From Nitrospirota bacterium (GTDB lineage: Bacteria; Nitrospirota; UBA9217), in assembly GCA_963754875.1 (NCBI GenBank), contig CAVWHO010000020.1:175374-239373 (forward strand): a DNA stretch of 64,000 bases, read 5' to 3'. How positions within the stretch are numbered: position 1 is the first letter of the stretch; each line of letters begins with the position of its first letter. Under the pieces are notes generated by a model, which was not told the DNA's origin, searched no databases, and saw only the letters and a list, made by a program, of their open reading frames with translations. The position numbers and the translations under genes are program-made. Below are positions 1,741-47,333 of this stretch, in pieces.

Positions 1741-2133
1741 TCATTTATGTGCCTTTAATTTCCTTAATGTGAGTGAGTATACGAGCAAGATGTTGCCGAT
1801 TAAGAAACTCAAAACGCAACCACCGCCGCAAATATTGCCTAACCAATCGAGCGATGGCCATACTGAAAGAAGAAGAGCAAGACCAGCAAGGAAGGAAGGT
1901 ATTATCCAGATAAAAAATAGCGATACTTTTAATAATATTTCGTTAACGAGTCTATCGTTCACAAGGAAGATGAAAAATACACTTTTTATGATAATAAATA
2001 ATCCACCGAAGATCTTTAGTTTTTCAAATACAGTTAGACCTGGAATGAAAATCAGAGAAAGGGCTATTATCGCTTCAGCAGATACCGCGATCACAGCTGA
2101 TTGGTAAATTCGCTTTTTGTTATGTGTTGTCAT
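1741..2133 (-). CDS. hypothetical membrane protein (about 4 TM helices) in an AT-rich island
   Basis: 130-aa ORF, strongly hydrophobic, with no recognisable motif and no clear RBS. Confidence 0.35.
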   Translation of the reverse strand: MTTHNKKRIYQSAVIAVSAEAIIALSLIFIPGLTVFEKLKIFGGLFIIIKSVFFIFLVNDRLVNEILLKVSLFFIWIIPSFLAGLALLLSVWPSLDWLGNICGGGCVLSFLIGNILLVYSLTLRKLKAHK

Positions 2134-2184
2134 TGTAGCGCCTCAGGAGGCAGCGTATAGACTTTCTGCCCAAATAATGTTAAG

Positions 2185-2217
2185 GCTTCTTTCTGAACGC
2201 ATTATTCAGAAAGAAGC
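2185..2217. repeat. perfect 13-bp stem hairpin (gcttctttctgaa-cgcatta-ttcagaaagaagc); possible end structure of the IS91-like element
   Basis: Perfect inverted repeat read directly from the sequence. It lies 270 bp beyond the 3' end of the IS91-family transposase gene. Confidence 0.6.
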
Positions 2218-2484
2218 TGGTTGGACTAAGCCGTAGCGCGCCACGTTGCTATGGGATTTCAAATGATTTTTCAGTTTAAAGCGAAGTCCGTGGAGGCGGC
2301 ATTGGCAGGGGCATGAGACTTGTTCGATTGAAAAGCGGCGATTCCGGACTGCTCCGCAAGCCCCTTTCGTAAATGACTATACAGGAAAAAGGGCTTTGGA
2401 GCAATAGAGTATCGTTGCGAAAAACAGGGCTGTTTTCGGGGGTGGATGTCGGGGCTGGGTTGTTCATTACAGTACTTGCGATAA

Positions 2485-3597
2485 TCATATTTGCGGCGGT
2501 CCTTTGCAGCGCGCGGGCTGCATGATCTCGATGGTACGCATTGTTCGTTCGCCGCAGGCAGGGCATTTGGCGACGTCGATGCCGGCGATCCTGAGCAGGG
2601 ATTCCTGCCACGTCTCGGTTTTCTGTTCCCCCTTGTTCTGCTCGGCGCAGGCTAGAAGCTCCCTGCAGCGATCGAGTTTCTTCTTACGGCATCTGTTGCC
2701 CAACAAACCGTAGTGCCTGATCTTCACGAACCTGTCGGGAAGGACGTGAAGCAGGAACCGCCTGATGAACTCATCGGGCTTAAGAGGCATGATTTTGGTT
2801 TTGTTGTTATCGGCGTAGTCGCGCCACCGGAAGGAAACTTCGTCTTTATCGATCTTCACGAGCCGGTGATTGCTGATCGCGATACGGTGAGTGTACCTGC
2901 CGAGATATTCAAGAACACCCTTGGTTCCGTCGAACGGCGGCTTGCAGTAAACGACCCATTTCTTCTTGTACAGATCGGTGATCAAAGCCTTGAATGCCCC
3001 CGGCGACGCAAAATGGCTTACGGCGCCGGGGTAAATGAGTTTATTTTCGGCACGGAGCTTTTCCAGATAAGCAATAAATTTTCCCCGAAAGAGCTTCGAC
3101 ATCACTTTGACCGGGAGGAAGAAGTCATTCTTGCATGACTTCCATTTCCGTCCATCACGGGACAAGCCTCCGCCGGTGACGATGTTGTGGAGGTGCGGAT
3201 GGTCCATGAGATTCTGTCCCCACGTGTGTAGGATCGAGATAAACCCGATGTCAGCGCCAAGATGCTTCCGGTTTTCCGAGAGCTGGGCCAGGGTTTCTGA
3301 GGCGGACTTGAACAGGATTCCGTAGAGAACTTCCTGATTCCGGAGCACCAGAGGATTGAGAAGATCGGGGAGGGTGAAGATAACATGGAAGTACGGGATG
3401 GGAAGCAGATCTTTCTCCCGAGCCTCTATCCACTGCTCTTTTTTGAGGAACTGGCACTTGGGACAATGCCGGTTTCTGCAGGAGTTGTACGAGATCACTT
3501 TCGTTCCGCAGTGCTCGCACTCGTCCACGTGGCCGCCTTGGTCGGCGGTACGGCAGGTTTCAATCGCCCGCATGGCGCGAAGACGATTCAAGGGCAT
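2485..3597 (-). CDS. IS91-family (rolling-circle, HUH Y2) transposase
   Basis: N-terminal zinc-binding CxxC...CPKC motif. LHTWGQNLMDHPHLHNIVTGGGL is the IS91 HxH motif region. The tyrosine region YLGRYTHRIAISNHRL follows. Confidence 0.8.
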   Translation of the reverse strand: MPLNRLRAMRAIETCRTADQGGHVDECEHCGTKVISYNSCRNRHCPKCQFLKKEQWIEAREKDLLPIPYFHVIFTLPDLLNPLVLRNQEVLYGILFKSASETLAQLSENRKHLGADIGFISILHTWGQNLMDHPHLHNIVTGGGLSRDGRKWKSCKNDFFLPVKVMSKLFRGKFIAYLEKLRAENKLIYPGAVSHFASPGAFKALITDLYKKKWVVYCKPPFDGTKGVLEYLGRYTHRIAISNHRLVKIDKDEVSFRWRDYADNNKTKIMPLKPDEFIRRFLLHVLPDRFVKIRHYGLLGNRCRKKKLDRCRELLACAEQNKGEQKTETWQESLLRIAGIDVAKCPACGERTMRTIEIMQPARCKGPPQI

Positions 3598-3699
3598 GGG
3601 ATGAGCGTTCCGGTAAAGAGGACCGTACCGGCGAAAGATGTCCGCGACTTCGATCTGTCGGCTATCTCGCGTCTACACGGCGGGTGTCGCGTGTGCAGG

Positions 3700-3921
3700 C
3701 TACGAGGGTTGCGAAGGATTTGAGAAGGGGCCTAAGTCCAGAGGGCTCACGATTTTCGAGAGGTTCTTTTTGCTCACGTGGAGATAAATGGTGGTCGTTC
3801 TCACCGACGCATGGCCGAGCAGAAGCTGAATATAGTGCAGATCAGCTCCCGACTCCAGCAGGTGTGTGGCGAAGCTGTGGCGGCTATTCCGCATGCGGAA
3901 TAGCCGCCATTCATTTGCCAC
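3700..3921 (-). pseudogene. C-terminal fragment of a tyrosine recombinase (phage-integrase/Xer family), upstream of and co-oriented with the IS91 transposase
   Basis: [18 protein letters not shown]...[16 protein letters not shown] carries the R-H...Y catalytic box. There is no N-terminal domain; it is truncated at the palindrome centre. Confidence 0.7.
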
Positions 3922-4060
3922 CCACCTTTTGCAGGCCGGCTATGACCTCCGCACGATCCAGGAACTGCTCGGGCACGCCGATATCCGGACGACGATGATC
4001 TACACCCACTGCGTGCCGAGCAAAACATTGAAAGAGATGAAGATCCCGTTGGATTTCTAG
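3866..4060 (+). pseudogene. second, diverged tyrosine recombinase C-terminal fragment in inverted orientation
   Basis: [28 protein letters not shown]...[14 protein letters not shown], about 70% identical to the minus-strand fragment. Confidence 0.65.
3878..3909. repeat. perfect 32-bp palindrome (tggcggctattccgca|tgcggaatagccgcca) at the centre of a ~190-bp imperfect inverted duplication of the integrase 3' end
   Basis: Arm-by-arm reverse complement verified base by base. The flanking ORFs encode near-identical peptides on opposite strands. Confidence 0.9.
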
Positions 4061-4513
4061 GAAGGGAACATACGACTGAAGCTTGTGAACCGCGATGGCG
4101 ACAGTTTATGCCGTGCCATGACAATAACAGGGAACAGGGTACTTTCGTGCAGAAAACGAATATGTGGTTCTCTGTGCGGGATAATGAGTAGTTGAATTTT
4201 ATCATGAATCGGATTATCATTGCTTACTATCATTCGTATCAGCATTTAACTGGAAAAACTTTTAATTGTGCATTATCAAAAACCATCAGTTAACGGCTCA
4301 CGTTTTGATCGATTTCATTTCATACTGCAATGCTGTTTACGCAATCCTTACGTTTTCTTTCATTAATGAAATATTCCTTTAAAGTTATTCGTCGTTTATG
4401 CCGATAAGTTAGATGAAGTGCGCGAGGTGCTTTTGCTCGAACAGGATGATCGGACGAGGCATTCAAGATGTCTGAATTCATTGTTTCTTTGCTCAAAAAA
4501 ACATCCTCTTCGG

Positions 4514-4542
4514 TTGACAACTAAACAAAATGATGCTTAATT
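4514..4542 (+). promoter_or_regulatory. candidate sigma-70 promoter (TTGACA-17-TTAATT) for the 4595 gene
   Basis: Hexamers and 17-bp spacing read in the AT-rich intergenic region 50 nt upstream of the RBS. Confidence 0.3.
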
Positions 4543-4594
4543 CCAGTCATCTGTTTTTTTATTTATTTAAAATCAATCGAGCCGGAGGTCGTAC

Positions 4595-46492: not shown

Positions 46493-46564
46493 TCAGTTGC
46501 CTCCTGGTTGATTCCGCAGTATTGGGTTGTTTTTTTCCTTCTTTGCTCTCTTCCCCCGACAGTG

Positions 46565-46570
46565 TATAAT
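46565..46570 (+). promoter_or_regulatory. candidate -10 element (gTGTATAAT) for recO, implying a near-leaderless transcript
   Basis: TATAAT hexamer 10 nt upstream of the recO ATG. Confidence 0.25.
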
Positions 46571-46580
46571 GTCGTCACCC

Positions 46581-47333
46581 ATGAAATCCAAAACCGAAGC
46601 CATCATTATCAGCAGCATGAACCTGGGCGAAGCGGACAAGCTCGTTACGTTCTTCTCCCTTGACCGGGGCATGCTCAAAGGCGTAGCCAAGAACGCGCGA
46701 AAATCGTTCAAACGCTTCGGTGCAGGGCTCGAGAGTTTTACCCTCGTCCGGCTCCATCTCTACGAACGCGAGCACCAGGAACTTGCACGGATCGAATCTG
46801 CCGATATCATCGAGCAGCACTCCGGGATCAGCGCAGACCTCGGCCGCACTGCCGCCGGGGCAGTGATGCTGGAAATGGTGCGGGAAATGTCCCCGCTCGG
46901 CGAGCGGAATGCCGCGGCATTCCTGCTCCTCTCCCACGTGTTCCATCTTCTCGACGAAAGCGTAGACCCGCTTTTTCTGCTCAGCATCTTCAAAATAAAG
47001 TTCCTGTCGCTTTTGGGATATCAGCCCAAGCTCGACCACTGTCTGTCCTGCGGGAACCAGCCGAAAGGGGAGATCATTTTCCTCAGCATGAAGGGAGGCA
47101 TTCTCTGCCCGGACTGCATGGTGTCTTCCGGCGAACCGCAGGTGAAACTGTCTCCCGGAGCGGTCGGCTTTTATTACCAGGCGCTCAGGATGGAGATGGA
47201 CAAAATATCCCGGCTCAAGCCTTCATTGGGCATCGTGCAGGAGCTTGATAAGACGTTCACTGCCCACACCTTCCACATTCTCGGCAAACGGCTCAAAGCA
47301 ACGGAGTTTCTGAAAACAATAACGGCATTGTAA
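46581..47333 (+). CDS. recO: DNA repair protein RecO
   Basis: N-terminal OB-fold region and a C-terminal Zn motif CLSCGN...CPDC. Confidence 0.8.
   Translation: MKSKTEAIIISSMNLGEADKLVTFFSLDRGMLKGVAKNARKSFKRFGAGLESFTLVRLHLYEREHQELARIESADIIEQHSGISADLGRTAAGAVMLEMVREMSPLGERNAAAFLLLSHVFHLLDESVDPLFLLSIFKIKFLSLLGYQPKLDHCLSCGNQPKGEIIFLSMKGGILCPDCMVSSGEPQVKLSPGAVGFYYQALRMEMDKISRLKPSLGIVQELDKTFTAHTFHILGKRLKATEFLKTITAL

Follow-up and report, generated by a model that had tools for sequence, protein, structure and literature searches.

RIT (recombinase-in-trio) elements occur commonly on plasmids and in genomic islands; Ricker (2013) is said to have described them as ritA-ritB-ritC with inverted repeats, and we know of no experimental reproduction of their transposition to date. 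The arrangement of ritA-ritB-ritC flanked by inverted repeats is documented (Van Houdt 2009/2012; PMC3414803; PMC5737581), with palindromic repeats of 47-51 bp reported at the RIT ends (PMC5737581), and a mobilome study found RIT DNA to be resistant to exonuclease and did not find circle junctions (PMC5737581). Both the way RITs move and their specificity for targets are entered as "not tested" in PMC10214605, and radC is also given as a RIT neighbour in the literature. Our literature search for RIT target sites, with Ricker et al. 2013 lying outside it, yielded only descriptions of insertions at radC and in transposase genes.

The window, by which we mean the whole 64,000-nt stretch of DNA analysed here, resembles RIT elements in that the 22-nt core of its palindrome is identical to the outermost site of RIT ends in two related contigs (L014 and L015) and the arms of this core are RIT repeat subsites, but it carries the site alone, without rit genes or a terminal inverted repeat. 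It also resembles IS91-family elements with an upstream tyrosine recombinase (YR) gene (annotated int-tnp pair, pNGR234a, L031 142-2224), which combine a Y2 HUH transposase and N-terminal Zn domain with a 278-aa YR upstream and an end hairpin downstream of tnp; intact copies lack a target duplication and have CATT or TGTT as left flank. Unlike these, the window copy lacks the left end and three quarters of int, and the long form of its transposase has a stop at codon 2. The right arm shares the IntI-type tail ...RTTMIYTH...PLD with the IntI remnants of degenerate integrons, but only 51 codons are left, attI is probably gone, and the cut falls precisely at the catalytic Arg-His and is joined to a RIT site, unlike random decay. 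Taken together, we consider that the palindrome in this window is probably an empty ("solo") RIT attachment site joining the remains of a divergent IS91-type int (minus strand) and an integron integrase (plus strand). The features on which this reading draws are the following.

2176..3882, minus strand: 5'-truncated IS91-family int-tnp element, delimited by BLASTN against the intact copies L001-L006
2185..2217, no strand: terminal hairpin with a 13-bp stem and 7-nt loop, 9 nt inside the end at 2176
2221..2245, no strand: sub-terminal inverted repeat TTGGACTAAGCCGTAGCGCGCCACG, matching the left-end repeat TTGAACTAAGCCGCTACGCGGCGG of intact copies
2485..3678, minus strand: IS91-family Y2 transposase gene, from Pfam, NCBIfam and N-terminal comparison with relatives
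3700..3882, minus strand: C-terminal 60 codons of the IS91-associated integrase (...SPLDL...; stop at 3700-3702), starting at the Arg-His codons 3877-3882
3877..3910, no strand: putative solo RIT attachment site with 6-22-6 layout; exact 22-mer in 9 other contigs, layout at 14 junctions
3905..4060, plus strand: C-terminal 51 codons and stop of an integron-type integrase (ending ...IPLDF), starting at the same Arg-His codons

The palindrome and its two arms

An earlier note on this DNA had pointed to a perfect 32-bp palindrome at 3878..3909, which was confirmed (sequence TGGCGGCTATTCCGCATGCGGAATAGCCGCCA) and proved to be the one palindrome of at least 20 bp in the 64-kb window, with a chance expectation estimated at ~64000 x 4^-16, or ~1e-5; its single-stranded fold gave z = -6.5. 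The AT-rich surroundings described in the same note were also found, with a GC content of 38% at both 1800-2175 and 4061-4594 versus 53% for the whole window. An Rfam search of the whole window returned zero families. The recO gene also contains an 18-bp palindrome, at 46906, which has no relation to the junction palindrome.

As had been claimed, two YR C-terminal fragments point outward from the palindrome on opposite strands, each with RH...GH...Y present. The accompanying description of a ~190-bp imperfect inverted duplication stood only in part: inverted similarity extends over 3809-3978 (69% over 170 nt), but the word duplication does not apply, because each arm is coding sequence of a different gene, and the two coding regions are homologous. 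Counted from the palindrome centre, identity between the arms is 100% for 16 nt and then drops to ~62-65%. Both fragments start immediately at the equivalent catalytic Arg-His codons, and the 22 bp between them (GCTATTCCGCATGCGGAATAGC, 3883-3904) are foreign to both genes; native relatives read CHTL/RHSF (L001, L006) and, on the integron-type side, SHTF/RHSF, versus RNS/RHSF on both sides in the window (the slash precedes the Arg-His pair).

Against Pfam Phage_integrase, ORF 3700-3921(-) matched profile positions 132-171 of 172 (E = 1e-12) and ORF 3866-4060(+) matched positions 132-168 (E = 1e-14). The best NCBIfam match of the plus-strand fragment was TIGR02249 integron integrase (profile positions 265-313 of 315), with XerD at 67.4 bits; the TIGR02249 score of 72.8 bits is below the cut-off (265) because just 51 residues are left. 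The nearest relatives read ...KRVTSHTF/...SPLDF, and some carry the name integron integrase. L007, the closest relative of full length, is frameshifted, lies beside an array of small ORFs and contains the IntI-specific WQWFIPQ...RRYHLH segment; the region of the IntI-specific additional domain is found in L007 and in longer fragments and is deleted in the window.

The IS91-type remnant

The IS91-family assignment made earlier holds, the gene being one for a Y2 HUH rolling-circle transposase with an N-terminal Zn-binding domain; ORF 2485-3597(-) matched Y2_Tnp PF04986 (E = 5e-66), Zn_Tnp_IS91 PF14319 (E = 1e-29) and, in NCBIfam, NF033538 transpos_IS91 (456 bits, cut-off 125). This ORF encodes 370 aa from ATG 3597, homologous transposases have 370-397 aa with identity up to 90%, and the long form (start 3678; 397 aa in relatives) has a TAG at codon 2 (3673-3675). 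BLASTN matches to L001-L006 span 3879/3882 to 2172/2176 at 77-83% identity, and the element end was set at 2176 by comparing three insertion sites of one element. The element retains its right end, tnp and the last 60 int codons and has lost the left end and int codons 1-215. At the three insertion sites of intact relatives the left flank is CATT or TGTT and a target duplication is absent; the left end of intact copies (CATT, then GAACTAAGCCGCTACGCGGCGG) lies 170-270 nt upstream of the complete int, and the window has the right end alone.

The minus-strand YR fragment had been noted to occupy the position of the accessory recombinase gene of some IS91-family members, in agreement with the 278-aa int that L001-L006 have 14-23 bp upstream of tnp. 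At the aa level the fragment is 72% identical to the intact integrase of L006 over residues 216-275 of the latter, and it occupies the matching place relative to tnp, and the native upstream ...CHTL of this int was not present in the window. Both the hairpin reported in the earlier note and its suggested place at the element terminus were upheld, with a perfect 13-bp stem (2185-2197/2205-2217), a 7-nt loop and z = -5.1, an element end 9 nt beyond the stem, and a stem kept by compensatory changes (in L001 and L006, G-C to A-T at the stem base and A-T to G-C beside the loop). BLASTN of 2100-4300 against plasmids returned only distant IS91 genes, and exact-protein look-ups of the window transposase and the 64-aa ORF P0247 returned no record. 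The IS91 copy is an inactive remnant that keeps tnp and the hairpin-bearing end, and both recombinase genes of the window are dead.

A 22-nt site shared with RIT ends

The junction can be divided into an S box GTGGCG (3877-3882), the 22-nt site p (GCTATTCCGCATGCGGAATAGC, 3883-3904), which consists of two inverted CTATTCCG subsites around CATG, and a second S box CGCCAT (3905-3910). The exact 22-mer was found in nine other unrelated contigs (one genome contig and eight metagenome contigs; chance predicts far fewer than one), with identity in L014, L015, L013 and L008-L012. A common layout recurs at 14 junctions, namely a 6-nt Arg-His box, a 22-nt site made of the RIT's own repeat subsites and another 6-nt box; among sequence variants the site length is constant at 22 nt, and the breakpoints fall at the equivalent codon in at least five YR families. 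Among the best 119 short proteins of a profile search, 93 have the palindrome-encoded peptide directly before R-H. In L014, three tandem YR genes recognized by Pfam, 57-75% identical to the trios of pHG1, EbN1 plasmid 2 and pNGR234a, are flanked on both sides by the 22-mer, and the internal repeats CTATTCCGAG and CTATTACCGAG correspond to the palindrome arms. RIT ends bear repeated 8-9-nt subsites on sequence comparison; in L015 the 22-mer is the outermost part of the RIT end, and in L015 and L025 RIT ends are connected via p to int_C fragments.

The window has the parts by which a RIT attachment site is defined here, with a p of two inverted RIT subsites and inverted S boxes on R-H codons. 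Three adjacent ritA-ritB-ritC genes were not found in the 64 kb, where tblastn with RitA, RitB and RitC matched the two C-terminal fragments alone, so the window holds a RIT site and not a RIT. RIT terminal inverted repeats with repeated subsites were likewise absent here, the flanks of the S boxes being integrase coding sequence and not ...CACTATTCCGAGTCCCGGACTATTACC....

The earlier suggestion of a foldback or junction scar was not borne out, nor was an origin by replication slippage, since the central 22 bp are the RIT terminal site in unrelated contigs. A replication or repair error between inverted, diverged integrase genes, leaving a private palindrome, would draw on arms that are homologous and inverted (69% over 170 nt) and on the tendency of quasi-palindromes, which are hot spots of template switching, to undergo it; we nevertheless regard such an error as extremely unlikely, because a private error cannot yield an identical 22-mer in nine unrelated contigs as part of RIT ends, the breakpoints lie at an equivalent codon in at least five YR families, and the site keeps its 22 nt across variants.

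The window junction is known here from assembled sequence alone, and a chimeric join of two integrase contigs at a palindromic k-mer (32 bp = k+1, k = 31) would be a conceivable origin, given that IS-type repeats often break or misjoin metagenome assemblies and that several related contigs end inside the palindrome (L014). However, the central 22 bases belong to neither gene and cannot be made by a gene-gene k-mer overlap, and the 6-22-6 head-to-head layout is present in finished EbN1 plasmid 2, pNGR234a and a Paraburkholderia plasmid, which makes an artefact unlikely as a class of explanation. In addition, one locus was assembled independently in five JGI samples, and another in both an NCBI MAG and a Logan assembly. 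We therefore hold a join of this kind to be highly improbable.

The IS91 neighbourhood offers another reading, in which the palindrome would be an IS91-type terminus (ter/ori) or the target of the element's own integrase; hairpins do occur in IS91 ends, and IS91 int-tnp neighbours are found in the window, L014, L022, L025 and L029. Yet the intact left end has a different sequence and position, the site occurs without a nearby IS91 in L013, L018 and EbN1, and its arms are RIT repeat subsites rather than IS91 sequence, which leaves this reading very unlikely.

The reading frame through the site could also suggest a function of its own, as a programmed shufflon-like switch or as a source of divergent mini-proteins, since on either strand ATG CGG AAT AGC reads in frame into R-H and gene-calling programs return "MRNSRH..." ORFs of 60-75 aa. 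The Met position is nonetheless G, H, P, A, V, Q, F or Y in site variants, which means that the start codon is not conserved, and a switch is contradicted by arms from different YR families and by 64 kb without an N-terminal partner. We give such a function hardly any credence.

Tn554 and the strand-biased circularizing elements (SEs) have 6-bp "coupling" sequences, and 6-bp flanks travel with YR transposons (PMC10214605); the S boxes are similar in that they vary between copies and co-vary across p. Unlike in those elements, the RIT box is duplicated and inverted around a 22-nt site and lies on conserved target codons. A derivation of the 22-mer from integrase "box I" (10-mer CTATTCCGCA, which matches the TYSAG codons of L001) was considered and rejected, as the closer relative L006 has no match and the 22-mer is RIT sequence.

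RIT insertion and its predicted products

Inserted RITs have an extra 22-nt p on one side, between two 6-nt S boxes that coincide with the Arg-His codons of the target (CGNCAY), and in YR genes the insertion point lies exactly between HxL and RH. A simple insertion has the order T_N..HTL-S-[IR..ritABC..IR]-S-p-S-T_C, as in L029, where an IS91-type int is split at aa 214/216 and a tnp pseudogene lies directly downstream, and in L030 and L031, where ritC of another RIT is split. Besides these, N-N arrangements in which a RIT lies between two N-terminal fragments without p were found in pHG1 and EbN1, and L028 represents a C-C arrangement with a RIT between 33-nt direct repeats S-p-S, which is what the docking of a circle into a solo site should give. 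Solo C-C sites occur in L013, L018-L021 (five samples), L022/L023 (NCBI MAG and Logan assembly) and finished EbN1 plasmid 2. Some RIT ends adjoin non-YR genes, namely a HipA-like gene (L008), the "GH" codon pair of a phosphoesterase gene (L009) and an IS66 tnp (pHG1), so the preference for YR genes is not absolute.

These arrangements suggest a route to the window junction. A RIT would first have inserted at the RH site of one of two divergent genes, and the RH site in the second gene would then have served as the partner for recombination with the spare internal core of the RIT (IR arm, S, p arm). If the genes pointed away from each other, their RH sites would have been in direct orientation and the event would have been a deletion, taking with it the RIT, the N-terminal portions of the two genes, the left end of the IS91 element and the intervening DNA, probably including attI, and leaving rc(int_C)-S-p-S-intI_C. 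The lack of RIT genes and of N-terminal integrase pieces, none of which was found within the 64-kb window, is as such a deletion predicts. In a variant of this route, the RIT would have been excised later from an already formed C-C site, and this one window would fit deletion, inversion and later excision alike. What is left should still be able to accept a RIT circle with the same p. From the junction sequences we infer a RIT circle with two mirror-image cores and a 6-bp crossover in S.

Exonuclease-resistant RIT DNA without detected circle junctions (PMC5737581) would also permit a hairpin-type intermediate. The site's owner would still be a RIT, but with protelomerase-like resolution to hairpin telomeres, and a solo site would represent fused flank hairpins. 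The palindromic sites with a 4-6-nt centre fit this chemistry, and inverted predicted binding arms around a short central spacer, perfectly symmetric in the window, are a likeness to loxP/FRT core sites and protelomerase palindromes that is drawn from sequence; unlike those, many RIT-site variants are asymmetric. Asymmetric centres (AATG, GTTCAA) or non-identical arms (L029, L031) in many p variants are not what an origin by hairpin replication would give, the direct repeats of asymmetric S-p-S around the L028 RIT fit circle integration, and N-type junctions lack p entirely, so that we consider hairpin resolution unlikely, with somewhat more in its favour than an IS91 origin of the site.

A broader joint reading, which we advance tentatively and with less than even confidence, is that RITs may be specialised "recombinase-gene hunters" whose site recombines with the Arg-His-coding DNA of other tyrosine recombinases. 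Targets would comprise IS91-associated integrases, integron integrases and the rit genes of other RITs, and the spare mirror-image core would produce deletions and inversions that result in N-N RITs and in RIT-less, palindromic C-C sites serving as reusable docking sites. If so, the window would record one such event, in which one mobile element knocked out the recombinases of two further ones; RITs would then account, widely and in a way so far undescribed, for the inactivation of integrons and IS91 elements and for the many 60-90-aa "integrase" ORFs of environmental genomes. Two common annotation puzzles, short "integrase" ORFs starting at R-H and integron integrases truncated at a fixed position, would thereby gain a candidate cause. 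The window alone carries a modest message, namely two dead remnants, one an IS91 copy and one an integron integrase, and a palindrome that is apparently an empty transposon site. The pattern recurs widely and suggests how RITs may choose targets and disable rival mobile elements, and the junction and its relatives give a testable picture, with a 6-22-6 site, a preferred HxL/RH target and a limited range of predicted products, all of them observed. In the literature examined we found no description of the proposed 6-22-6 site, of HTL/RH insertion in other YR genes or of the putative N-N, C-C and solo products.

With attI and attC cassettes in view, an imperfect hairpin at 1676-1745 was noted left of the IS91 remnant, between two small ORFs of the minus strand.

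The junction and its two truncated arms

The perfect 32-bp palindrome TGGCGGCTATTCCGCATGCGGAATAGCCGCCA at 3878-3909, the sole perfect palindrome of at least 20 bp in the whole 64-kb window, lies at the origin of two outward-running tyrosine recombinase (YR) tails, and the feature as a whole reads as an empty attachment site of a recombinase-in-trio (RIT) transposon (ritA-ritB-ritC with terminal inverted repeats, IR) at which what is left of an IS91-type element meets what is left of an integron integrase, both dead.

Features of the region
129-509 and 502-1293: IS630-family transposase in two overlapping frames (HTH ORF and DDE_3 ORF), adjoining the cassette-like ORFs
1320-1673 and 1741-2133, minus strand: small membrane-like ORFs within low-GC DNA
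1676-1745: imperfect hairpin of ~60 nt between the two small ORFs, ATAAC...GTTAT ends, z about -3.5 to -3.8
2185-2197/2205-2217: terminal hairpin, exact stem pairing
2485-3597, minus strand: IS91-type transposase ORF, Y2_Tnp and Zn_Tnp_IS91 domains (NCBIfam transpos_IS91, 456 bits), 3' of the minus-strand YR tail
3700-3921, minus strand: YR tail ORF, outward from the palindrome, last 40 positions of Pfam Phage_integrase
3866-4060, plus strand: YR tail ORF, outward from the palindrome, same part of the Phage_integrase profile

The anatomy given in the earlier note (palindrome, outward integrase tails, IS91-type transposase, hairpin and low-GC flanks) was verified throughout: the palindrome and the hairpin at 2185-2217 fold far better than shuffled sequence, and GC content is 38% in the flanks (1800-2175 and 4061-4594) compared with 53% window-wide. 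Its ~190-bp inverted duplication holds as inverted similarity (BLAST 69% over 170 nt) and not as a duplication, the arms being different genes; identity is 100% for 16 nt from the centre and ~62-65% thereafter, a pattern due to two different genes encoding one conserved motif.

The left arm is a truncated IS91-type element. Its transposase has thousands of homologues (identity up to 90%, usual length 370-397 aa), and in six related loci (L001-L006) the gene 14-23 bp upstream of the transposase encodes a 278-aa integrase (SAM_4 and Phage_integrase domains). Element ends were set from one IS91-type element at three insertion sites, with one copy interrupting a sulfate-transporter gene and no target duplication at any of the three; in intact copies a flank ending CATT is followed by GAACTAAGCCGCTACGCGGCGG... 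at the left end, while the right end runs ...hairpin...AAGCATT into the flank. The window aligns with intact copies between 3879/3882 and 2172/2176, which places the right end of the element at 2176 and the hairpin 9 nt inside it, and the hairpin pairing is kept in L001 and L006 through compensatory substitutions. The window copy lacks its left end as well as the first 215 codons of the integrase (codons 1-215). The long (397-aa) transposase form carries TAG at codon 2 (3673-3675, start at 3678) where relatives have TGC, and only the 370-aa form is open, from the ATG at 3597, some database relatives being likewise annotated at 370 aa. Separately, the left flanks of intact int-tnp copies (L001 3972-6515, L002 and L005) always end in CATT or TGTT and the element ends in ...CATT, which suggests that the element targets a tetranucleotide other than GTTC/CTTG, the one used by IS91 proper.

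The right arm is most probably an integron-integrase tail. TIGR02249 is its best family, and its nearest relatives, some of them named integron integrase, read ...KRVTSHTF/(19 residues)...SPLDF (slash, break point). A 90%-identical relative (L007), full-length but frameshifted, contains the IntI-specific WQWFIPQ...RRYHLH segment and adjoins an array of small ORFs. In the window, the ORFs at 1320-1673 and 1741-2133 and their hairpin resemble integron cassettes with attC, and they point the way that the intI remnant at 3905-4060 would predict. The IS630-family copy at 129-1293 is a second, unrelated insertion sequence.

The central 22 bp and their RIT owner

The native order at the break is CHTL/RHSF in IS91-type integrases and SHTF/RHSF in the IntI type, whereas the window reads RNS/RHSF on both sides; both genes were thus cut directly before the same catalytic Arg-His (RH) codons. 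Between the two cuts lie 22 bp, GCTATTCCGCATGCGGAATAGC, that are foreign to both genes; the shared continuation CGCCA on either side is all that lengthens the palindrome to 32 bp. The earlier reading as a foldback or junction scar is accordingly revised, the centre being a recurrent 22-mer identical to RIT ends.

Exact searches recovered this 22-mer from nine contigs, eight of them metagenomic and the ninth from a genome (an Acidobacteriota MAG), with far fewer than one occurrence expected by chance. It lies between two outward integrase tails (RHTFGT... and RHTVGT...) in L013, and abuts R/RTATRNMVRAG... in L012, RHAWATHLL in L014 and RHAFAVHLL in L015. On its other side in L008, L010, L014 and L015 is a conserved stretch, CGNCAC TATTCCGAGTCCCGGACTATTACC..., followed in L014 by three tandem overlapping YR genes with 57-75% identity to RitA, RitB and RitC of classical trios (pHG1, EbN1 plasmid 2 and pNGR234a), and beyond ritC by the mirror-image stretch and the 22-mer again. 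The palindrome arms, CTATTCCG, are subsites repeated within the RIT inverted repeat, and in L015 and L025 a site of this kind links the ritC-side RIT end to the int tail and transposase of an IS91-type element. These comparisons clearly point to a RIT element as owner of the 22-mer, the central 22 bp being identical to RIT ends.

At L010 7785-7850 and L024 8930-9000, the 22-nt site and ~35 nt of RIT inverted repeat remain, while the rit genes are missing or reduced to an N-terminal ritA remnant, so RITs also decay in place beside their sites. Elsewhere in the window, an 18-bp perfect palindrome, GGAATGCCGCGGCATTCC, at 46906-46923 inside a recO-like ORF (46527-47333) bears a superficial likeness to RIT subsites, with no recombinase fragments and no 6-nt boxes (S) of the kind found at RH codons beside it.

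Junction layout and target preference

The 14 junctions compared, drawn from metagenomes and finished plasmids, share a constant layout and fall into two types. In N-type junctions, the N-terminal part of the target (T_N...HxL) is followed by S (CGNCAY, the RH codons) and the RIT inverted repeat, with no palindrome; in C-type junctions, the repeat is followed by inverted S, the 22-nt site p, S and the C-terminal part (T_C). The site p has a fixed length of 22 nt, in which two inverted subsites enclose a centre of 4-6 nt, and its sequence varies by RIT family, matching the repeat subsites of that family. The compared loci clearly support a fixed break codon with a shared 6-22-6 layout, and all four predicted arrangements evidently exist.

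Arrangements (C-C or N-N, two T_C or two T_N flanks; solo, S-p-S without RIT)
Simple insertion, one gene split at HTL/RH, N-type and C-type junctions on opposite sides: L029 (Paraburkholderia plasmid; target int of an IS91-type element, tnp pseudogene directly after); L030 and L031 (L031 on pNGR234a; target in both, ritC of another RIT)
N-N, two N-type junctions and hence no p: pHG1 and EbN1 plasmid 2
C-C with RIT: L028, RIT flanked by a 33-nt direct repeat of asymmetric S-p-S
C-C solo: the window and L013; L018-L021 (one chromosomal locus, five samples); L022/L023 (NCBI MAG and Logan assembly; right arm IS91-type int tail and tnp); finished EbN1 plasmid 2 (RitC tail, GTGTCG CCTATCTCTTCAGCGACATAGG AGGCAT, RitB tail)

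In L028, the swap between inner and outer S boxes is exactly the one that circle integration into a solo site would predict. Solo sites are stably present across samples, each at a single chromosomal locus, linking RitC-type and IntI-type tails in L017-L021 (five JGI samples) and a RitC-type tail to an IS91-type int tail and tnp in L022/L023; beside the RitC tail are TTATGTGGCG repeats resembling the end of a different RIT family. The published recombinase-gene 'maze' of pHG1 (L026, NC_005241.1 128150-138109) is a RIT inserted at the RH codons of a second RIT's ritC, the second occurring twice, in identical copies of opposite orientation (A1-B1-C1_N -> RIT2 <- C1_N-B1-A1), with a 36-bp perfect palindrome at one of its ends inside an IS66 transposase gene.

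A profile from seven short YR fragments retrieved thousands of short proteins. Among the best 119, the palindrome-encoded peptide x-R-L-[F/C]-R-x-R-[N/H]-x stands directly before RH, at the start or within, in 93, in many sequence variants, and native HxLRH occurs in only 17. In at least 19 of these proteins, what stands upstream is another YR tail translated in antisense, the mark of a solo C-C site; in at least eight it is a translated RIT repeat. Six of nine plasmid RITs, a small and unsystematic sample, abut a YR gene at RH; RIT ends also lie at non-YR genes (L008, L009 and the IS66 tnp in pHG1), so the YR preference is strong, not absolute.

RIT insertions have been reported in radC and transposase genes (PMC2864759, PMC3414803) and palindromic repeats at RIT ends (PMC5737581). 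Neither the RH-codon target nor solo sites turned up in the literature covered, Ricker et al. 2013 lying outside that scope. For the window alone the feature is a relic; as a class, such sites reveal a RIT target rule and rearrangement logic, apparently undescribed so far.

A possible course of events

No RIT has been mobilised experimentally, and a review of such elements lists both the movement of RITs and their choice of target as not tested (PMC10214605); RIT DNA was exonuclease-resistant, with circle junctions undetected (PMC5737581). The mobile form would carry IR-S-p-S-IR, with p common to two mirror-image cores. If one core crossed over with an HxL/RH site within the 6-nt S, a simple insertion would result, the second core remaining intact within the inserted unit. 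Where the replicon holds another YR gene, this spare core could then recombine with the RH site of that gene. Inverted sites would yield an inversion, producing an N-N RIT and a C-C solo site, and sites in direct orientation a deletion. We infer the circular intermediate, the crossover in S and the order of events in this genome from the compared loci.

The two window genes are divergent, which would put the spare core and the second site in direct orientation; a single deletion would then have taken out the RIT together with the N-termini of both genes, the left end of the IS91-type element and the intervening DNA, leaving exactly rc(int_C)-S-p-S-intI_C. A deletion fits both the absence of rit genes and N-terminal integrase pieces from the 64-kb window and the position of the cassette-like ORFs and attC-like hairpin, left of the remnant in integron orientation. 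RIT excision from a pre-formed C-C site would lead to an identical junction and is indistinguishable from deletion here. For the deletion, the Paraburkholderia plasmid locus L029 represents the predicted precursor state.
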